NCBI RefSeq assembly: GCF_000008665.1
Contig: NC_000917.1
Coordinates: 1,560,001-1,592,000 of the forward strand
DNA: 32,000 nucleotides
Reading direction: 5' to 3'
Source: Archaeoglobus fulgidus DSM 4304
GTDB taxonomy: Archaea > Halobacteriota > Archaeoglobi > Archaeoglobales > Archaeoglobaceae
Of this stretch, positions 21,257 through 31,545 are shown one piece after another. The notes beneath the pieces are model-generated. The model saw only the letters and a list, made by a program, of their open reading frames with translations. It did no database searches and was not told the DNA's origin. Every line of letters starts with the position of its first letter. The stretch's first letter is position 1. A program made the translations under genes and the position numbers.

Positions 21257-22681
21257 ATGAGAGGGCTTGCCGTGCTGGTGTTGCTGGTTTTTGCCGTGCA
21301 GGTGGCAGCAGCGGAAGACTTTAGACCGGTAGTGTTTGTGCACGGTCTTGCGGGTTCTGCTGGACAGTTCGAGAGCCAGGGGATGAGGTTTGCTGCAAAC
21401 GGATATCCGGCAGAGTATGTCAAAACCTTCGAATACGACACGATTTCGTGGGCTTTGGTTGTGGAAACTGACATGCTCTTCAGCGGACTTGGGAGCGAAT
21501 TCGGGCTGAACATCAGCCAGATTATCGACCCTGAAACGCTTGACAAGATACTTTCCAAGAGCAGGGAGAGGCTGATTGACGAAACCTTCAGCAGGCTCGA
21601 CAGGGTCATAGACGAAGCTCTCGCTGAAAGCGGAGCGGATAAGGTGGATCTGGTCGGGCACTCAATGGGGACGTTTTTCCTGGTCAGATACGTCAACTCC
21701 TCTCCTGAGAGGGCTGCGAAGGTTGCGCACCTCATTCTTCTTGACGGCGTCTGGGGGGTTGATGCTCCCGAAGGGATTCCGACGCTTGCAGTGTTCGGAA
21801 ATCCGAAAGCTCTGCCGGCTCTCGGACTTCCGGAGGAGAAGGTTGTTTACAACGCAACCAACGTTTACTTCAACAACATGACGCACGTTCAGCTCTGCAC
21901 TTCTCCGGAAACTTTTGCGGTGATGTTTGAGTTCATAAACGGCTACAAGCCAGCAACAACCGACATAGTGCCGCAGGATGGAGATTACGTGAAGGTTAAG
22001 GGGAAGTTTCTGGCCTTTGCGACCAATGGTGACGTTTCGGGATGGCTGTCAATCTATCCGATAGACGAGAACGGCAAGAGGTTGACGAGGTTGCCCGTCA
22101 AGTTCATGAGGGTGAAGGGGGACTTTGAGGTCAGGCTCAGGAAGGGGCAGCTTTACGAGTTCCAGTTCCGCAAGGACTTCAGCCCCATCATTTATCACTA
22201 CTACCGCGCCCCCTTCGTGAGAGATGACCTGTGGGCGAGGTTTCTGGTATCAAAGCCTCCCCTCGACGTGGAGCTTTTGATACTGCCCGAAAGACTCTCC
22301 CCAGCAGCCAAGGAGACATCGGGACTGCTGCTGATTAGATACAAGGAGATGATAGGCGAGTATGACGAGGAGATTGGCGGTGTTGATGAGGTTTACGTGA
22401 ATGGTGTCAACGTCTGCACTGAGAGAATCTGCCCCATTGAGAGAGCCGTCAACGGGCTATGGGTCTTCGACAGGGGGGCTGATGGAAAGAGCGATCTTGA
22501 CAGAGAGGTTGTTAGGTACTCCATAATGCCTTTCATGAGCGCCGCCGACCTTGTTGTCCCTGCGGAGGGGACGATAAGCATAGCTGTGAAGTCGAGAACC
22601 GGTGGGGAGGAAAGCTTCACCATCCCGGCATGGTCTGCGGACAGGCACTCGATTATCGTGCAGTTTTCGGATTACATTTAA
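21257..22681 (+). CDS. Secreted lipase/esterase: N-terminal alpha/beta-hydrolase domain plus a C-terminal ~230-aa accessory domain
   Basis: The signal peptide is [30 protein letters not shown] is the oxyanion region and [12 protein letters not shown] is the nucleophile elbow. I recall this 474-aa architecture as the characterised A. fulgidus lipase AF1763, whose C-terminal beta-barrel domain contributes to substrate binding. That is memory, not a search. Confidence 0.85.
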
Positions 22682-23974: not shown

Positions 23975-25762
23975 ATGGTGAAGTTCAAGTTGTTCGCATT
24001 AATCACGGTTTGTACCCTATTCATTCTAAATCCAGTCTCAGCTCTAAAAGTTGGTGTTTACGACAACCCTCCTCTTGTTTTCGTCGAAAACGGTGAGGCT
24101 AAAGGCTTCTTCATTGACATACTCGAATACATCGCAGAAGAAGAGGGGTGGAGCATTGAGTACGTTCATGACACCTTCCCCCGGCTGTTGGATAAGCTTG
24201 AGAGGGGTGAGATAGACCTTCTGGTGGATATAGCGTACACGGAGGAGAGGGCTGAAGCTTACAAGTTCAATGATGAGGCCGTTTTCACTAACTGGGGAGT
24301 GGTTGTGGGAAAACAGAACCTTGACTCTGTTTTGAAGCTTGATGGTTTAAAGGTTGCTGGAGTGAAAAGGGACGTTTACACCGCGGAACTGAAACGGCTT
24401 GTTGATGAGTTCAATCTAAACTGCCAGATATTTGAGATTGAGGGGGATTACAGGGAAGTTTTCGAGAAAGTTAAGGCTGGTAGGGCAGACGCTGGAGTGG
24501 TTTCGAGAATATACGCCTCCCTCTACGCCTCAGATTACGGCTTGAAGGAGAGCAGCATCATTTTCGGCCCGGTTGAGCTCAGATTCGCAGGGAGAGACGA
24601 TAACGTGCTTGGGAGAATAGATGCCCATCTAAGCGCCATGAAATCCGACCGCAACTCTGTTTACTATCAATCTCTCGACAGGTGGTTGGGGCCGAGGGTT
24701 GAGGTGATTCCCCAGTGGGTTTACTACGCGATTGCGTCCCTTTTTGCTGTGCTGCTGGCTGCAATTGCGCTCAATGCATACCTCAGCAGGGTTGTTGCAA
24801 AGAGGACAGAGGAGGTTAGGAAGAATGAGGCCTTCCTGAGAGCCATTTTCAATACCATACAGGATGGAATCAGCGTTCTGGACAAGGATATGAACGTTAT
24901 AATGGTTAACCACGCAATGGAGAGGTGGTATGGAAATGTTGTGGGAAAGAAGTGCTACGAAGCGTACCACAACCGCAGTGAACCGTGCGAGGAGTGCCCA
25001 ACTATTGAAGCGATGAAAAGCGGTGAAATGAAAAGAGGAGTAGTTCCGGGGCTGAAGGGTTCTGAAGTGGAATGGCTTGAGCTCTTCAGCTATCCTCTCA
25101 TTGAAAACGGAGAGGTCAAGATGGTTGTGGAATTCGTCAGGGACATTACGGAGAAAAAGCGCATGGAGGAGGAGCTGAGAAAAGCTCTGGAGAGCTACGA
25201 GTATCTATGGAACAGCACCAACGACATCCTTTACGTCCACGACATGCGGGGTTGCTTTACAAGGGTAAACAGAAGGGCTATGGAGCTTCTTGGGTATGAA
25301 GAGGGAGAGAACGTCACTGTATGGGATGTCGTTCCCGAGTCCCACCATGAGTTGGTTAGGGAGAAAATAAGAGAAGTTGTTGAAACAAAAAAGCCAACGG
25401 AGCCGTTTGAGCTGCCGGTTAAAGCGAAGAGCGGTGAGATACTGTGGCTTGAGGTTATCGCACACCCTGTAATTGAAAAGGGAGAAGTTGTTGCCGTGCA
25501 CGGTGTTGCGAGGGATGTTACAGAGAGGAAAAAGTTCATAGACGAGATTGGTGAGAACATAAGGCTGGTTTCTCACTTGGTGGACAGAATAAGGAATCCT
25601 CTCGCTGCTGCGAGAGCCTTCTGCGAGTTAAGGGAAAAACTCGGAGGTGAAGCCTTTGAGAAGGTAATCTCAAACATAGACAGGGTTACGGAGCTTATTG
25701 AAGACCTCGACAGAGTATGGGCGAATCTTGAGCGGCTGAGAAGGGGACTTAAGAGGCCCTGA
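23975..25762 (+). CDS. Membrane sensor protein: extracytoplasmic family-3 SBP domain, TM helix, two PAS domains and an H-box/DHp-like tail, with no HATPase_c domain
   Basis: A signal/TM segment (FALITVCTLFILNPVSA) is followed by an SBP_bac_3-like region (LKVGVYDNPPLVFVENGEAKGFFIDILEYIAEEEGW...). Next comes a TM helix (YYAIASLFAVLLAAIALNAYL). PAS1 is NEAFLRAIFNTIQDGISVLD...VRDITEKK and PAS2 is YEYLWNSTNDILYVHD...ARDVTERKK. The H-box-like sequence LVSHLVDRIRNPLAAA follows, with only about 60 aa after it. Confidence 0.8.
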   Translation: MVKFKLFALITVCTLFILNPVSALKVGVYDNPPLVFVENGEAKGFFIDILEYIAEEEGWSIEYVHDTFPRLLDKLERGEIDLLVDIAYTEERAEAYKFNDEAVFTNWGVVVGKQNLDSVLKLDGLKVAGVKRDVYTAELKRLVDEFNLNCQIFEIEGDYREVFEKVKAGRADAGVVSRIYASLYASDYGLKESSIIFGPVELRFAGRDDNVLGRIDAHLSAMKSDRNSVYYQSLDRWLGPRVEVIPQWVYYAIASLFAVLLAAIALNAYLSRVVAKRTEEVRKNEAFLRAIFNTIQDGISVLDKDMNVIMVNHAMERWYGNVVGKKCYEAYHNRSEPCEECPTIEAMKSGEMKRGVVPGLKGSEVEWLELFSYPLIENGEVKMVVEFVRDITEKKRMEEELRKALESYEYLWNSTNDILYVHDMRGCFTRVNRRAMELLGYEEGENVTVWDVVPESHHELVREKIREVVETKKPTEPFELPVKAKSGEILWLEVIAHPVIEKGEVVAVHGVARDVTERKKFIDEIGENIRLVSHLVDRIRNPLAAARAFCELREKLGGEAFEKVISNIDRVTELIEDLDRVWANLERLRRGLKRP

Positions 25763-25822
25763 ACTTGCTGAAAGAGTTTCTACCTTTTAATTTTGAGCCC
25801 AAATAAAAAATAAATCAAAAAA
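25763..25822. terminator. Oligo-T-rich convergent terminator region between the sensor gene and the SBP gene
   Basis: The plus strand has ccttttaattttg after the sensor stop. The minus strand has tttttgatttattttttattt after the SBP stop. This is inferred from the archaeal oligo-T termination rule. Confidence 0.45.
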
Positions 25823-27385
25823 TTATTCGGAATAGCCAGCCTTCTTCAGGTACTCCTTGGCAAGCTCGATGTTGCCATCTCCATACATATCCTTGAAGAC
25901 GTCCTCGTGGCTCCACATACCGATTGGTATTAAGGAGTACAGCGGCTCAACGGTCCCTCTGTAAACCCTCTGGGCGATGTCCTCTCTGTCAATTGCAGCT
26001 GCAATGGCCTTTCTGACGTAGATGTTCTTTGTCGGGTAGTCTGTGTTTTCATTGGCGTTGAGAACGAGGTACCTGATGAAACCACCCGGAGCCTCGATAA
26101 CCTGCAGACCCTCCTTTGCCTTCAGGGATTCGATGTCGATTGGTGTGAGCGTTCTCCATGCGATGTCAACCTCTCCCTTCTCGATGGCAAGTCTTAGAGT
26201 TGTGGCGTCCTTGTAGAACTTCACCACAATTCTCTTTGTCATTGGCTGCTCTCCAAAGAAGTTCGGGTTGGCTTCGAGAATTAGCTCCTGGTCTCTCTTC
26301 CACTCCACTATCTTGTAGGGCCCAACTCCACCGGCAGTCTGGTCGGGGTCTATTTCATCTGCCTTGTATGCCGGGTGGACGGGGAAGTATGGCGGTGTTG
26401 CAAGCAGTGAGACAAAGTACGCTGCTGGCTTCTTGAGCGTGAACTTCACAGTGTAGTCGTCAACAGCCTCCACATCCTCGACGAAGTGAGTAACGAGCCA
26501 TGAGGGGTCGCCCTGAATGGTCATGACTCTCTTGATGCTTCTCACCACATCCTGCGCCTTGCATGGGGTGCCGTCAGCAAATTTCAGATCCTGCCTGAGG
26601 TGGAAGGTGTAAACAAGGCCATCCTCACTGACTTCCCAGCTTTCAGCAAGGTATGGCTCAAGTTCTGTTGTGCCGGGCTTGTACCTTACCAGCCCTCCCA
26701 TGACGTTGTTCATAATTTCCCATGTGTAGAAGTCGTAAGCATTGGCAGGGTCGAGATCGGTAATCTTGTCAGTTACACCGATGGTGATTGTGTCCTTCTG
26801 CTCCTCGGAGTAGACAAGATAGTACCTGAAAATCATGGTCGGGTCGAGGGTAATTCCCTTGATGTCGTCCTTTGCAACTATCGTCAGCTTGCCCTGTACG
26901 AGCGGGATTATCGGTGCATCCTCAGCAAGCTTCTGCTGTATCTGCTTGTAAAGCTTCTCTCTCTCCTCCATCGAGGTTGCTGTTGATGCCTTCTCAAGCA
27001 GTTCATCCATCTCCGGGTCGCAGTACGGATAGCCGAGCCAGTTGTTTGCCGTGCAACTCAGGAAGGGTGTGGTGTAGTCATCAGGGTCGAGGTAGTCAGG
27101 ATACCATCCGAACAGCGAAGCCATCATCGCTCCCTTTCTGGAATAGTCCTGGAAAGTTGACCACTCGGCGCTCTTCAGCTCAACCTCAATCATTCCCGTT
27201 GCCTCAAGCTGCTCCTTCAGAACCTGTGCCAAATCTTTCTCAGTGTCACCGTAGTGAGTTGGAGTCCACCAGAGCTCAATCTTCAGCTTCTTAGCTTCCT
27301 CTTTCTGCGGTTGCTCCGGCTGTTGGGCACAGCCCAGTAGCAGCACTGCAGCAACCAAAAGCGCCAAAACGTATAGTTTCTTCAT
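25823..27385 (-). CDS. dppA: ABC transporter substrate-binding lipoprotein, family 5 (DppA/OppA-like), with apparently permuted domain order
   Basis: The signal peptide plus lipobox is MKKLYVLALLVAAVLLLGC. Family-5 blocks are LAESWEVSEDGLVYTFHLRQDLKFADGTP, GVGPYKIVEWKRDQELILEANPNFFG and GWYPDYLDPDDY. The order of these blocks is unusual (see findings). The peptide substrate is assumed from the family only. Confidence 0.85.
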   Translation of the reverse strand: MKKLYVLALLVAAVLLLGCAQQPEQPQKEEAKKLKIELWWTPTHYGDTEKDLAQVLKEQLEATGMIEVELKSAEWSTFQDYSRKGAMMASLFGWYPDYLDPDDYTTPFLSCTANNWLGYPYCDPEMDELLEKASTATSMEEREKLYKQIQQKLAEDAPIIPLVQGKLTIVAKDDIKGITLDPTMIFRYYLVYSEEQKDTITIGVTDKITDLDPANAYDFYTWEIMNNVMGGLVRYKPGTTELEPYLAESWEVSEDGLVYTFHLRQDLKFADGTPCKAQDVVRSIKRVMTIQGDPSWLVTHFVEDVEAVDDYTVKFTLKKPAAYFVSLLATPPYFPVHPAYKADEIDPDQTAGGVGPYKIVEWKRDQELILEANPNFFGEQPMTKRIVVKFYKDATTLRLAIEKGEVDIAWRTLTPIDIESLKAKEGLQVIEAPGGFIRYLVLNANENTDYPTKNIYVRKAIAAAIDREDIAQRVYRGTVEPLYSLIPIGMWSHEDVFKDMYGDGNIELAKEYLKKAGYSE

Positions 27386-27750
27386 GTTGTAAATGTCCGT
27401 GTTATGATATATAACAGTATCTTGAGTGTATCTGGCAAAAATTTAATGGGCTAATCTTTTTATCGCTCCGGCTGGGAGCATAAGATTCATTGGAGAGGTT
27501 ACGAAACTAATCATGAAACAAGAAAAAGGAAGAGAGGCTTTAGCATCAACGTGTAGTGCCACTCTTCCGTTAATTATTTCTCCCGAAATCGACATGGTTC
27601 TTTTTCACTATCGTTTTCGAGCCTTCTCAGAAGTGCCATGAGCTTCAAACGTGCATCTGATGAAATACAATCTTCAGGCGATAAAGGTACAACAATGTGC
27701 CCCTCTTTCCCTCAGATAAATTTTTAAGCCAAACACCTCAAACGTATCCG

Positions 27751-28761
27751 ATGTCGTCACTGCCGGCTTACATAATAACAAGGTTTTTAATGGTAATACC
27801 GACGGTGCTAATCCTTTTGACCATCGTTTTCCTGATACTCAGAATTATCCCCGGCGACCCGATAACGGCGATGGTGGGGCAGAAGGTTCCGGAAGAGGTA
27901 TTGGAGAAGCTTCGGCATGAGGCAGGGCTGGACAAACCATACCACGAGCAGTACATTGAGTACCTTAAGGGTGTATTCACAGGTGACCTCGGAAAGTCCA
28001 TGATCTGGGGGAAGAGACCTGTAATTGCCGAAATCATGGACCACTTTCCCGCTACGCTTGAATTGACGATATTTGGCTTCATTTTGAGCGTTCTGATAGG
28101 AGTTGCCACTGGCTCGATTGCGGCCTTCAGAAGGGGCAGCAAGGTTGATTCTGGGATGAGGATTTACAGCATTGTCGCCTACACGCTCTTCATCCCTTGG
28201 TTTGGAATGCTTCTGCAAATGCTTTTCGGGGTTTATCTGAAAGTTCTGCCAATTGGCGGTAGAATAACGCCCGGAAACACTCCAGAGACAATCACAGGGC
28301 TTTACGTTCTTGACAGCATTTTAACGCTGAACTTTAACTCTCTTATCGATGCCCTCGCCCACCTCGCACTGCCTGCAATAACACTCGGAATTGTTCTTTC
28401 AGGGGCCTACACAAGATTGCTGAGAAACAACCTGATTGACGTGCTCAGTCAGGACTTCATTAAAGCTTACAGGGCGAGGGGAGTGAGGAACAGAAAAGTC
28501 GTCTTTCATGCGATGAAGAACGCGTTCATCCCCGTCGTTACGCTGATGGGTCTCCAGTTCGCCATTCTTCTGGCTGGAGCGGTGCTTACGGAATCAACCT
28601 TCTCGTGGCCGGGGATGGGAACTTTCCTGATTGAGAGGATAGAGTACAGGGACTACACCTCCGTTCAGGGGGCGATAGTCTTCTATGCAGTCTTTGTAGC
28701 GCTAATCAGCCTTGTGGTGGATGTGATTTACGCGTTACTTGACCCAAGGATAAGATACTGA
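27751..28761 (+). CDS. dppB: ABC transporter permease (DppB/OppB family)
   Basis: The ORF track start at 27697 is GTG. I prefer ATG 27751 (MSSLPAYIITRFLMVIPTVLILLTIVFLILRIIPGDP), a typical N-terminus, about 30 nt downstream of the TATA-like sequence ataaatttttaag. The EAA-type loop is DFIKAYRARGVRNRKVVFHAMKNA and the C-terminus is DVIYALLDPRIRY. Confidence 0.9.
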   Translation: MSSLPAYIITRFLMVIPTVLILLTIVFLILRIIPGDPITAMVGQKVPEEVLEKLRHEAGLDKPYHEQYIEYLKGVFTGDLGKSMIWGKRPVIAEIMDHFPATLELTIFGFILSVLIGVATGSIAAFRRGSKVDSGMRIYSIVAYTLFIPWFGMLLQMLFGVYLKVLPIGGRITPGNTPETITGLYVLDSILTLNFNSLIDALAHLALPAITLGIVLSGAYTRLLRNNLIDVLSQDFIKAYRARGVRNRKVVFHAMKNAFIPVVTLMGLQFAILLAGAVLTESTFSWPGMGTFLIERIEYRDYTSVQGAIVFYAVFVALISLVVDVIYALLDPRIRY

Positions 28762-28770
28762 GGTGGTGGA

Positions 28771-29631
28771 ATGGCGGAAGTCAGAAATCTCGCAACAACA
28801 ATCTTCAGCTTCCTTCCAGAGGCGGAAGGGAGGTACATGGTCATTTCGGGACTTGCGATAATCATCACTGTCGCATTGATGGCGGTCTTTGCCCCCTTCA
28901 TCGCCCCCTACGACCCTATAAAGTCGGGAAAGGACGTTCTGCAGCCTCCAAGTGCTGAGCACATCATGGGAACGGATAATCTCGGCAGGGATGTTTTTTC
29001 GAGAATCGTTTTCGGCTCAAGAGTTGTTCTTGCCGTTGTACTGTCAGCCTCTCTTGTTTCAACGGTTATTGGCGTCCCTCTCGGCCTCATTTCCGGATAC
29101 TTTGGCGGAAAGCTTGACAGGCTGCTCTCAATGCTGATGGACAGCATGTACGCATTTCCCGGCCTGATTCTGGCAATTGCAATTGCTGCTGTTCTTGGGC
29201 CAAGTGTTTTCAACGCTGTTGTGGCAATCTCTGTTGTTTACGTTCCCACATACTTCAGGATGATTAGGGGGCAGACGCTGAGCGTCAAATCCCTGCTGTT
29301 TGTTGAGGCTGCAAAGGCTGCAGGAGCGAGCGACTGGAGGATAATGAGGAAGTACATTTTCCCCAACCTCATTCCAACCCTCGTGGTAGTCTTCTCCCTG
29401 AGCGTAGCTGATGCGATTCTCACTGAGGCAGGATTAAGCTTTCTTGGATTCATAGTGAGCGCTCCCACTCCTGACTGGGGATTTGAGCTCGCTTCGGGAA
29501 GGCCATACCTGCCTGCGGGCTACTGGTGGATGATTACCTTCCCCGGGCTGATGGTGATGCTGCTCTCTCTCGGCTTTGCATTAGTTGGAGAGGGGCTCAG
29601 TGAGATATACGCACCAAGGAGGGAGAGATGA
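28771..29631 (+). CDS. dppC: ABC transporter permease (DppC/OppC family)
   Basis: HIMGTDNLGRDVFSRIVFGSR and FVEAAKAAGASDWRIMRKYIFPN are typical of DppC/OppC. Confidence 0.9.
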   Translation: MAEVRNLATTIFSFLPEAEGRYMVISGLAIIITVALMAVFAPFIAPYDPIKSGKDVLQPPSAEHIMGTDNLGRDVFSRIVFGSRVVLAVVLSASLVSTVIGVPLGLISGYFGGKLDRLLSMLMDSMYAFPGLILAIAIAAVLGPSVFNAVVAISVVYVPTYFRMIRGQTLSVKSLLFVEAAKAAGASDWRIMRKYIFPNLIPTLVVVFSLSVADAILTEAGLSFLGFIVSAPTPDWGFELASGRPYLPAGYWWMITFPGLMVMLLSLGFALVGEGLSEIYAPRRER

Positions 29632-30569
29632 TGCTGCTGGACATAGAGAACCTGACGACAATCTTCAGAACCCGCAGAGGTGTTGTGAGGGCGGTGGACA
29701 ACGTCAGCATGTCCGTTGAAAAGGGCGAGTTCATATCCATTGTTGGAGAGAGCGGTTGCGGTAAATCGACCCTCGCCCACTCCGTTATGAGGCTGATTGA
29801 TTATCCCGGCGAGATTTCGGGCGGTAAGATAATTTTTGATGGCGTTGATTTGCTCTCTTTAGGCGATGAGGAGATGAGGGAAATCAGGGGGAGCAAGATA
29901 GGGATGGTCTTTCAGGACCCAATGACCAGCCTTGACCCCCTTGAGAAAATAGGAGACCAGATTTCTGAAACAATCATGGAGCACATGGATGTTACGAAGA
30001 AAGAGGCGTGGCAGATGGCGAGGGAGATGCTTGAGAAGGTGGGCCTTCAGCCTGAGAGGGTTGATTCATACCCTCATCAGCTCAGCGGTGGCCAGAGGCA
30101 GAGAGTTATGATTGCGATGGCCATAAGCCTCAATCCCAAGCTTTTGATTGCAGATGAGCCAACTACTGCTCTTGACGTCATAGTTCAGGAGAAAATAATG
30201 GACTTGCTGGAGGACATGAAGAGGGAGGGCAGGGCTGTGATGCTAATCACCCACGACTTCGCCTTGGCTGCGGAGAGAAGCGACAGGATTGCGGTTATGT
30301 ATGCTGGCTGGCTCGTTGAGCTTGGCAAGGCTGAGAAACTGACGAATGAACCGCTCCACCCCTACACGAAAGGTTTAATTCAGTCCGTTCCCGATGTGTG
30401 GATGGATAAGGAAATCAAGCCCCTCCCCGGCTTCCCGCCCGACCTCATAAACCCACCAGAAGGATGCAGGTTCAGGCCGAGGTGCTCTGAAGCTTCGAAG
30501 AGGTGCATGAAGGAGCCGCCAGAGTTCGAAGTTGACGGAAGGGTTGTGAAGTGCTGGCTCTACGGGTGA
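29628..30569 (+). CDS. dppD: ABC transporter ATP-binding protein (DppD/OppD family)
   Basis: Walker A is GESGCGKST, the signature is LSGGQRQR and Walker B is LLIADEPTTALD. The C-terminal oligopeptide-transporter domain carries a Cys motif, GCRFRPRCSEASKRC...KC. An ATGA overlap links it to dppC. Confidence 0.92.
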   Translation: MMLLDIENLTTIFRTRRGVVRAVDNVSMSVEKGEFISIVGESGCGKSTLAHSVMRLIDYPGEISGGKIIFDGVDLLSLGDEEMREIRGSKIGMVFQDPMTSLDPLEKIGDQISETIMEHMDVTKKEAWQMAREMLEKVGLQPERVDSYPHQLSGGQRQRVMIAMAISLNPKLLIADEPTTALDVIVQEKIMDLLEDMKREGRAVMLITHDFALAAERSDRIAVMYAGWLVELGKAEKLTNEPLHPYTKGLIQSVPDVWMDKEIKPLPGFPPDLINPPEGCRFRPRCSEASKRCMKEPPEFEVDGRVVKCWLYG

Positions 30570-30573
30570 TAGA

Positions 30574-31545
30574 ATGCTGAGAGTTGAGAACCTCAAGAAG
30601 TACTTCCCCGTTCAGAAATCCGTTCTGGAGGTTTTGCTGAGCGGAAGAAGGGACTTTGTGAGAGCTGTCGATGGCGTAAGCTTCGAAATGAAGCAGGGTG
30701 AGGTACTTTCCCTCGTTGGGGAGAGCGGGTGCGGGAAGACGACGACGGGCAGAATCATCGTCGGACTGGAAAGGCCGACGAGCGGGAAGATTTACTTCAA
30801 GGACAGAGAGATTACCTCCCTCAGCGAGGAAGAGCAGAGGAGGATGAAGAGGCATATCCAGATGGTCTTTCAGGACCCCTACGCCTCCCTAAACCCGAGG
30901 ATGAAGATTGGGGAGCACCTCGTTGAGTCCCTCACAATTCACGGAATTGCGGAGAATGATGAGGCAAGGGAAATGGCCATGTCGATGCTGGACAGAGTTG
31001 GACTGCCGGGGGAGCAGTTCTTCAACAGAATGCCCTATCAGCTCAGCGGTGGCCAGAGGCAGAGGGTTGCGATAGCGAGGGCGATGATTCTCAAGCCCGA
31101 CTTCGTCGTTGCGGATGAGCCGGTTTCAATGATTGACGTCAGCCTGAGGGCTGCGATTCTTGACCTGCTCATGTCCTTCAGGGATGAGTACAATCTGAGC
31201 ATGCTCTTCATAACTCACGACCTGTCAGTTGCGAGGATTGTGGGCGATAGAATTGCGGTGATGTACCTCGGAAAAATAATGGAAATCGGAAAGACGAGGG
31301 AGGTTATACACAATCCAAGGCATCCCTACACCGCAGCTCTGCTTTCCTCAGTTCCGAGCTTCGTGAAAAAGGGGAGAAAAGTGGAAATTATTGGAGACAT
31401 TGCAAATCCCATCGATATTCCCTCAGGGTGCAGATACCACCCACGCTGCCCCTTTGCGAGGGAGAAGTGCAAGAAAGAGGAGCCCGAGCTGGAAGGCGGG
31501 GAGCACAGCTTTGCCTGCCACTATCCGCTGGAGGGCGGGTTTTAG
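30574..31545 (+). CDS. dppF: ABC transporter ATP-binding protein (DppF/OppF family)
   Basis: Walker A is GESGCGKTT, the signature is LSGGQRQR and Walker B is FVVADEPVSMID. The C-terminal Cys motif is GCRYHPRCPFAREKC...AC. Confidence 0.92.
   Translation: MLRVENLKKYFPVQKSVLEVLLSGRRDFVRAVDGVSFEMKQGEVLSLVGESGCGKTTTGRIIVGLERPTSGKIYFKDREITSLSEEEQRRMKRHIQMVFQDPYASLNPRMKIGEHLVESLTIHGIAENDEAREMAMSMLDRVGLPGEQFFNRMPYQLSGGQRQRVAIARAMILKPDFVVADEPVSMIDVSLRAAILDLLMSFRDEYNLSMLFITHDLSVARIVGDRIAVMYLGKIMEIGKTREVIHNPRHPYTAALLSSVPSFVKKGRKVEIIGDIANPIDIPSGCRYHPRCPFAREKCKKEEPELEGGEHSFACHYPLEGGF

Follow-up and report, generated by a model that had tools for sequence, protein, structure and literature searches.

A natural circular permutant of a cluster C substrate-binding lipoprotein encoded beside dppBCDF in Archaeoglobus fulgidus

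The 32,000-nucleotide stretch of the Archaeoglobus fulgidus DSM 4304 genome analysed here (hereafter the window; NC_000917.1, positions 1,560,001 to 1,592,000) carries, on its minus strand at 25823..27385, a gene for a substrate-binding protein (SBP) of family 5, or cluster C, and the 520-amino-acid lipoprotein that it encodes is a natural circular permutant of a canonical cluster C binding protein. The product is an exact match to A. fulgidus DppA (AAB89484.1 / WP_010879263.1 / O28507; UniRef100_O28507), and a second A. fulgidus GenBank record, AIG98768.1, holds the identical protein. Pfam AF_1763-like_C matches the open reading frame (ORF) 21257-22681, consistent with the AF1763-AF1771 region, and the locus number of the permuted gene would accordingly be AF1767. 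Its membership of the family-5/cluster C SBPs is supported by sequence, context and predicted fold, yet the protein fails the chain topology that is canonical for them.

The original prediction, made from the sequence of the window, held that the canonical C-terminal third had been rotated to the front of the protein; Pfam, PDB-sequence and custom-profile coordinates are all swapped, bearing this out. Pfam SBP_bac_5 (PF00496) matches the protein with 321.8 bits (cut-off 32.4, E = 7.9e-96) in two stretches, the two partial matches with exchanged profile coordinates expected of a permutant. In the PDB sequence search all good matches likewise consisted of two pieces in swapped order; against Yersinia pestis DppA (5f1q), query residues 229-518 correspond to chain residues 61-368 and query residues 35-183 to chain residues 373-524. 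With a custom hidden Markov model (HMM) built from 114 canonical close relatives, residues 29-194 align with positions 369-534 and residues 194-520 with positions 47-370. This profile is covered once, with no overlap, duplication or gap, in agreement with the claim that each block occurs a single time. The two swapped blocks jointly span the whole parent and, in the predicted model and the alignment, a short ordered linker connects the old termini while the new termini lie at a site that is contiguous in the parent. The collinear cluster C topology (lobe 1, contiguous lobe 2, lobe 1 segment) is absent, and no canonical protein or PDB chain gave a match that was collinear over the full length. 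Chance is excluded: the corresponding parts of P0002, a single canonical protein, match the blocks at 86-89% identity. Details of the predicted layout proved accurate as well: the lipobox LLLGC, the start of the N-terminal block near residue 198 (about nucleotide 26794), the end of the ORF (...NIELAKEYLKKAGYSE) and the position of the break at the canonical junction, ...AGYSE/DNK-LKVELWW, where the slash marks the cut. The gene and its parts are as follows.

25823..27385, minus strand: whole gene of the circularly permuted family-5 (cluster C) substrate-binding lipoprotein; ORF of 520 amino acids, exact coordinates
27329..27385, minus strand: signal peptide, amino acids 1-19, MKKLYVLALLVAAVLLLGC, with the lipobox LLLGC at its end; homologous to that of the canonical sister (63% identity to P0002 residues 1-35)
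27287..27328, minus strand: flexible tether after the lipidated Cys, amino acids 20-33, AQQPEQPQKEEAKK, from the canonical N-terminal linker AQQGQQPPAEKEEVKA
26810..27286, minus strand: relocated block, amino acids 34-192, LKIELWW...RYYLVY; the canonical C-terminal third, 89% identical to P0002 361-519
27095..27097, minus strand: codon of Asp97, aligned with DppA Asp436 (precursor) / Asp408 (mature)
26792..26809, minus strand: six-residue linker SEEQKD, amino acids 193-198, from the old C-terminus RYYLVY to the old N-terminus TITIGV
25826..26791, minus strand: canonical N-terminal two thirds, amino acids 199-520, TITIGV...AGYSE; 86% identical to P0002 37-357

In terms of mature Escherichia coli DppA, the relocated block corresponds approximately to residues 345-507, which make up the later part of lobe 2 and the last lobe-1 segment, and the N-terminal block approximately to residues 1-340, comprising lobe 1 and the first ~80 residues of lobe 2. 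The linker SEEQKD is similar to the canonical N-terminal linker motif KEEVKA, and the new C-terminus is situated at the canonical AGYSE/DNK loop.

The permuted order is not confined to a single assembly. The longest contig carrying the exact protein measures 2.3 Mb, and an intact permuted ORF occurs in three further independent assemblies: the JGI metagenome loci L001/L002, a metagenome-assembled genome (MAG) of Archaeoglobi (L005) and an Archaeoglobus MAG (L007). Their nucleotide identity to the window is ~84% for the SBP gene and ~82% across dppBCDF. The order recurs in error-prone or truncated assemblies (L004, L018 and L019, and the contig-end fragment P0027); L004, L018 and L019 contain frameshifts, which point to sequencing error because they affect all genes of those loci or coincide with 5.9x coverage. 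Given two A. fulgidus accessions, the 2.3-Mb contig and diverged intact orthologues in three assemblies, misassembly, which the original prediction had named as a possible undoing of its claim, is excluded.

Some of these loci have peculiarities of their own. The copy in L004 (1908-3465) is 94% identical, is covered 5.9x, has two frameshifts plus an internal stop, and differs from all other members of the permutant clade in having no dppB upstream; either this is an error of sequencing or assembly, or the copy is a pseudogene that sits in another context. For the orthologue in L007 (6001-7566; P0064) one NCBI annotation gives a 339-amino-acid 'hypothetical protein' starting from MIFRYYLVYSEEQK and omitting the relocated block, and a later RefSeq entry gives 521 amino acids; the permuted order may have confused homology-guided start-site calling. 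The new C-terminus has an ancestral-like form, ...EYLKKAGYSE before the stop codon, in the window (25826-25870) and in L004, and reads ...EYLNKYFEEVESSK or ...KYFEEAGS before the stop in L001 (7525-7569), L005 and L007.

The parent of the permutant is well defined. P0002 is the best canonical relative of the signal peptide and tether (63%), of the C-terminal block (89%) and of the N-terminal block (86%), which rules out a chimera of two parents and upholds the original reading of a permutation as opposed to a fusion. For the tree, sequences were re-ordered canonically (481 profile columns, 287 sequences) and analysed by neighbour-joining with 100 bootstraps. The A. fulgidus permutant clade was monophyletic (bootstrap 100) and sister to canonical P0002 (bootstrap 97; 87% identity after re-ordering); the next most similar permutant with the same break is only 43% identical. 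As the P0002 cluster includes Archaeoglobus neptunius WP_202320132.1 and other Archaeoglobus species, the permutation arose within this genus, and the event is recent. Relative-rate tests counted 29-38 unique changes in the permutant lineage vs 16-22 (p 0.003 to 0.33, depending on the outgroup), an acceleration that is at most modest.

The AlphaFold2 model of the permuted protein is a single globule with a mean predicted local distance difference test (pLDDT) value of 88.9 and a predicted template-modelling (pTM) score of 0.85. The region of the SEEQKD junction has pLDDT values of 87-96, and the sole stretch predicted to be disordered, residues 17-28, lies in the tether. Order-dependent Foldseek alignment of the model with DppA, NikA and OppA structures covered ~350 of 520 columns at a template-modelling (TM) score of ~0.5, with a probability of 1.00 for the larger block, the alignment being sequential; the model of the canonical sister vs the same structures gave ~518 columns and TM 0.80-0.85. 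Secondary-structure elements of the two models are of the same kind and order within each block. Query residue 518 falls on residue 340 of mature E. coli DppA (1dpp), and query residue 35, once the 28-residue offset from 5f1q is applied, on about residue 345. Cluster C proteins build lobe 1 from the N-terminal part together with the last ~40 residues and lobe 2 from a single uninterrupted segment, the lobes being connected through two short hinge segments (YejA, PMC10924461). The cut position and this layout place the new termini inside lobe 2, ~80 residues past the first hinge crossing. By mapping of the block boundaries, the permutant still has both hinge-crossing segments, and the junction of the old termini lies within lobe 1. 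The permuted protein apparently keeps the fold and function of the family.

The lipid anchor would now leave lobe 2 instead of lobe 1. In the Mycobacterium tuberculosis lipoprotein DppA, the N-terminal loop and lipid anchor run along transmembrane helix 2 of DppB, docking on the translocator is through the N-lobe and hinge, with the C-lobe as the mobile part, and removal of the anchor prevents assembly of the complex (PMC10954201). That tethering via the other lobe has an effect in A. fulgidus is speculative.

Both blocks and the junction have been under long-term purifying selection. For the four intact genes (L004 was left out), Nei-Gojobori ratios of nonsynonymous to synonymous substitutions (dN/dS) were 0.04-0.08 overall, 0.045-0.074 for the relocated C-terminal block and 0.026-0.094 for the N-terminal block, at synonymous distances (dS) of 0.35-1.36; the junction is nearly free of amino-acid change. 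Signal peptide and lipobox have been preserved. Asp97 does not vary among 85 permutants and 71 canonical relatives; its DppA counterpart, Asp436/Asp408, is what we take to be the residue binding the peptide amino group. The title of entry 8z1z (R383D+D436R) names R383 and D436 as mutated residues and does not confirm a ligand role for them.

The surroundings of the gene, with the elements flanking it, are listed below.

25801..25822, minus strand: T-rich stretch TTTTTTGATTTATTTTTTATTT right after the stop codon; comparable T-runs follow the stop in other permutant genes and canonical relatives; from its sequence, a likely archaeal terminator
27400..27425, minus strand: promoter-proximal motif TCAAGATACTGTTATATATCATAACA with a TATA-like core, 15-40 nucleotides upstream of the ATG; putative function
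27697 or 27751 to 28761, plus strand: dppB, divergent from the permuted SBP gene (dppBCDF region, 27697..31545)
28771-29631, plus strand: dppC, likewise divergent
29628-30569, plus strand: dppD, likewise divergent
30574-31545, plus strand: dppF, likewise divergent

The motif TCAAGATACTGTTATATATCATAACA is common to all permutant loci and similar to the upstream region of the canonical sister gene. A scan of the window for bacterial promoters and terminators yielded nothing above shuffle expectation, bacterial models being ill-suited to an archaeon, and no tRNA genes were found in the window. The divergent dppBCDF products are presumed to be the cognate permease and ATPase subunits of the permuted SBP. 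DppBCDF genes adjoin it in every member of the permutant clade with enough flanking sequence, so that a secretion signal on the SBP, Opp/Dpp-type permeases and two oligo_HPY ATPases occur together, the transporter genes running divergently from that of the SBP.

This orientation differs from that in more distant relatives (Archaeoglobus veneficus L012, L013/L014 and L026/L027), where the SBP gene is directly upstream of dppBCDF and co-directional. Wherever a permutant locus offers enough sequence (window, L001, L005, L007 and L019), the SBP gene and dppB are transcribed away from each other. A gene with an MGS domain lies on the stop-codon side of the SBP gene in L001 and upstream of the canonical gene in A. 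veneficus, placing the permutant at the ancestral position but inverted. The promoter-proximal motif, the homologous signal peptide and the T-rich 3' stretch have been kept, which argues that the rearrangement was internal to the coding region. Comparison of the intergenic DNA with canonical loci returned only short T-rich matches and the similar promoter-proximal motif, and no junction sequence explaining the inversion. Inversion was considered as a general correlate of permutation and rejected, as P0276, a permutant with the same break elsewhere in the family, sits in a co-directional operon.

Beyond the transporter genes the loci vary. On the 3' side of the SBP gene the window encodes, convergently at 23975-25762 on the plus strand, a 595-amino-acid sensor with SBP_bac_3, a membrane segment, two PAS regions and HisKA; it stops 14 residues past HisKA and no HATPase_c domain was detected in it. 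Synteny breaks just downstream of the SBP gene, with this sensor gene in the window and tRNA, ASCH and MGS genes in L001. The sensor gene adjoins the SBP gene in the window and L018, is absent from L001, and none was found by tblastn in L005/L007. Between the divergent SBP gene and dppB (window 27439-27715 vs L001:5902-5948), A. fulgidus has an intergenic region that exceeds those of L001, L005 and L007 by ~230 bp, conservation being limited to its promoter-proximal ends.

Altogether, we consider it very probable that the gene encodes a functional, tethered peptide-type SBP that serves the adjacent DppBCDF and that arose as a natural permutant of the cluster C fold by duplication or fusion followed by truncation. 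Its chain would start with the signal peptide, the lipobox Cys19 and a 14-residue tether, continue with the rear part of lobe 2 and the closing segment of lobe 1 (canonical ~345-507), pass over the SEEQKD bridge spanning the old termini, and end, before the stop, with lobe 1, comprising domains I and II, and the initial ~80 residues of lobe 2 (canonical ~1-340). Ligand capture and hinge closure would proceed as in canonical DppA/OppA, with the adjacent DppBCDF most likely acting as the cognate importer. The rearrangement dates to within Archaeoglobus, after the split from an A. neptunius-like lineage. Its first step was most likely an in-frame tandem duplication or fusion giving the order N-C-N-C; the first N block and the last C block would then have been lost. 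The gene's own promoter, signal peptide and terminator were kept, and in the permutant clade it was also inverted in place relative to dppBCDF.

Three observations favour the duplication route. The linker motif KEExK is present twice in the permutant (amino acids 28-33 and 194-198), as KEEAKK before the C-terminal block and as EEQKD in the bridge, and its canonical counterpart is KEEVKA; the family contains tandem SBPs with linkers of 7-10 residues; and the junction codons show microhomology of 2-3 nucleotides only. Of the original claim of a true circular permutation by duplication then truncation, the first part stands, and the route is the best-supported one that would produce the observed order, with no intermediate found in the lineage.

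Several findings weigh against parts of this explanation. Sensitive tblastn revealed no leftover SBP fragment around the gene in the window, L001 or L002, and scans of genome and metagenome sets returned no duplication intermediate, only the further permutants L004, L005, L007, L018 and L019 and distant, unrelated SBPs; the route would need several events and an inversion. No SBP gene adjoins the closest non-permutant dppBCDF (DppB 91% identical, three assemblies), and the canonical sister SBP of A. neptunius (L022) is an orphan between genes for a KaiC-like ATPase and a DUF1646 protein, so members of this group need not be linked to DppBCDF. The position of DppA Arg355 coincides with an alignment gap, and the scores against the equivalog models of DppA (NCBIfam NF043070, 174.9 bits vs a cut-off of 1005) and NikA (TIGR02294, 197.1 bits vs 393) remain below their cut-offs; the ligand may hence not be a simple dipeptide. 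By the strict definition of a DppA orthologue, which combines the cut-off with Asp408 and Arg355, the protein does not qualify, though the Asp is conserved. The SBP-less dppBCDF loci are L023-L025 (Archaeoglobus sp.), and in L024 an rve-family integrase gene is inserted just after dppF.

Other explanations of the locus have to be set against these data. An artefact, be it misassembly or two adjacent gene fragments read as one ORF, could draw on the 339-amino-acid annotation of P0064 and on the frameshifted loci. It has a negligible probability in view of the exact protein in two GenBank accessions and on the 2.3-Mb contig, the intact ORF in three more independent assemblies at ~84% nucleotide identity, the low dN/dS across the junction and the frameshifts being ascribable to sequencing error. 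A chimera, in which the C-terminal third of one SBP had been fused ahead of the N-terminal part of a different paralogue, might be anticipated in a family where SBP paralogues and multi-copy SBP proteins are common, but the shared closest relative of signal, C-terminal block (89%) and N-terminal block (86%), together with single coverage of the profile, makes it highly improbable.

We find it just as hard to credit that the gene is a decaying, non-functional relic of rearrangement and that the real SBP of the transporter is encoded elsewhere in the genome. Its inversion relative to the operon, the unlinked SBP of the sister lineage and the possible pseudogene in L004 would fit such a relic; strong purifying selection on both blocks at dS >1, the conserved promoter motif, signal peptide and ligand Asp, and the confident fold prediction contradict it. 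Somewhat less remote, and still improbable, is a neofunctionalised SBP that has kept the fold and no longer feeds DppBCDF, for example by signalling to the convergent AF1766-like sensor or binding a non-peptide ligand. The sensor with SBP_bac_3, PAS and HisKA adjoining the 3' end in the window and L018, the missing equivalent of Arg355 and the modest rate acceleration (29-38 vs 16-22 unique changes) speak for it, whereas the sensor is absent from L001 and was not detected in L005/L007, DppBCDF is adjacent in all, Asp97 is kept and the sequence is 87% identical to the canonical sister. A functional permuted SBP working with its neighbouring transporter hence remains the explanation that we favour.

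Permutation has recurred in this family. A search yielded 72,142 relatives among 1.84 billion cluster representatives. The nearest 150 were classified by the order of their profile coordinates; ~26 of these are single-copy permutants with three break sites. Type A (~12 representatives), to which the window protein belongs, breaks at ~365-375 of the profile; type B (~10 representatives) at ~297-305, near the first hinge; and type C at ~101-107, in the domain II hairpin (P0194, plus P0103 and P0117 from a first search). Every permuted lineage resembles canonical relatives of its own far more than it resembles other permutants of its type (P0156, 67% vs 38%; P0188, 64% vs 35%; and, for type C, P0117, 81% to canonical P0070 vs 38%), which implies at least ~13 independent events, spread over Archaea and Actinobacteria; Fitch parsimony on the tree counted 21. 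The old termini are fused by unrelated short linkers of 0-9 residues, with P0227 (18 residues) as the sole exception, and an N-terminal signal or anchor is kept in every permuted lineage. The type-A clade around P0144 comprises >80 clusters at 90% identity. Source names of permutants include Thermoplasmata, Promethearchaeota, Heimdallarchaeota, Bifidobacteriaceae and Propionibacteriaceae. Proteins with tandem SBPs in one polypeptide (P0204, P0257, P0266, P0228, P0241 and P0255) contain two to at least four units and reach 4308 amino acids; those with two units (e.g., P0257 and P0204) have C-to-N linkers of 7-10 residues and are the kind of intermediate that the duplication model needs. The permuted order is found in other Archaeoglobi assemblies and repeatedly across the family, and fused tandem forms occur elsewhere, the two outcomes for which the original prediction had proposed a survey of orthologues.

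Individual members add to this picture. In type C, the canonical first ~54 mature residues (RVTIGVTDKVTDLDP...) have moved to the C-terminus behind a GGSIAD linker, and the new N-terminus has a Tat-like signal and a Thr/Ser-rich linker (P0103 is L017:566-2305). Type B (P0181, P0182, P0183, P0188, P0211, P0216, P0217, P0231, P0239 and P0165) breaks at about DppA residues 266-274 and comprises at least five independent lineages, one of them in a Propionibacteriaceae MAG; its chain runs through lobe 2 and then lobe 1, which would leave one covalent inter-lobe connection instead of two. P0121 (1036 amino acids, JGI metagenome) has a nested N-[N-C]-C architecture, in which a complete canonical SBP is inserted at the N/C junction (profile ~372), the same loop in which the window protein is cut; this suggests that the loop is unusually permissive. 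That cluster C SBPs form a hot-spot of recurrent and adaptive permutation, in which moved termini and tether would alter the engagement of the translocator, seems to us rather unlikely; the tether would, in such a case, have left the docking N-lobe for the mobile lobe, the hinge or domain II.

A natural permutant and its near-identical canonical sister (87%), both within one genus and under purifying selection, make a rare matched pair, such pairs being very uncommon, and this one opens tests of the origin of permutation and of its costs in folding, stability and function at high temperature. Were the adaptive reading true, A. fulgidus and A. neptunius would amount to a near-isogenic natural experiment. 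Repeated permutation at three sites, alongside tandem forms, renders the family suited to testing the duplication-truncation model. The natural break sites and linkers show where cluster C SBPs tolerate new termini, which is useful for biosensor design. A natural SBP tethered via its other lobe tests the generality of the N-terminal tether and N-lobe requirement described for M. tuberculosis DppA (PMC10954201). There is also a lesson for annotation and structure comparison: order-dependent alignment depresses apparent similarity (TM ~0.5 vs 0.8), and an orthologue was called as a 339-amino-acid fragment.

In the literature searched, no permuted OppA-, DppA- or NikA-type protein and nothing on AF1767 or O28507 was found, only MglB-2 and engineered permutants, and the PDB holds no chain collinear with a type A or type B permutant. 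PMC2588589 names permutation and such binding proteins without linking them; the 2026 CIRPIN automated permutation survey leaves binding proteins unmentioned, and its database might contain such pairs implicitly. Recurrent permutation in the family was apparently undescribed, and the original remark to this effect for the present protein holds, in both cases within the literature and PDB searched.

The nearest precedent is Treponema pallidum Tp0684 (MglB-2), a permuted glucose-binding lipoprotein for which a 'Type Ic / Cluster Bc' subclass was proposed (PMC4990184). It too is a natural permuted SBP lipoprotein with ligand binding and domain closure retained, and a link to tethering was raised for it; it differs in belonging to cluster B, type I, in a permuted segment only 13% identical to its counterpart, in an extra fourth hinge crossing and in its uncertain origin (PMC4990184). 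Both blocks of the window protein, in contrast, are 86-89% identical to the canonical sister and no extra hinge crossing is needed; the protein falls outside the TpMglB-2 (cluster Bc) family, which is characterised by MglB-type cluster B homology and N-lobe strands shifted to the C-terminus, as it matches only SBP_bac_5 and cluster C structures. Permuted periplasmic binding proteins have also been engineered for biosensors and folding studies, with the old termini linked, new termini in surface loops and the fold kept; these are laboratory constructs, mostly of maltose-, ribose- or glutamine-type proteins, whereas the window protein is natural, selected and of cluster C.

Within its own family, the other permutants, of types A, B and C, represent separate lineages whose identity to the window protein is 31-45%. 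E. coli and Y. pestis DppA and further solved cluster C SBPs (1DPP, 5F1Q, 6OFQ, NikA and OppA) share with it the Pfam family, the within-block fold and the Asp aligned with D408; identity to solved cluster C SBPs is ~26-28%, and the window protein is set apart from them by being permuted, lipid-anchored, archaeal and devoid of an Arg355 equivalent. Closest of all are the canonical Archaeoglobus SBPs. Those of the P0002 cluster resemble it in signal peptide, lipobox, tether, secondary-structure elements and ligand Asp, with 87% identity once re-ordered, and the operon-linked orthologues (A. veneficus P0024, and P0003) have DppBCDF partners of the same type, 74-87% identical in L012 and L013. 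They differ in that the N-terminal block precedes the C-terminal block and in genomic placement, the gene being upstream and co-directional in L012/L013 and an orphan in A. neptunius.

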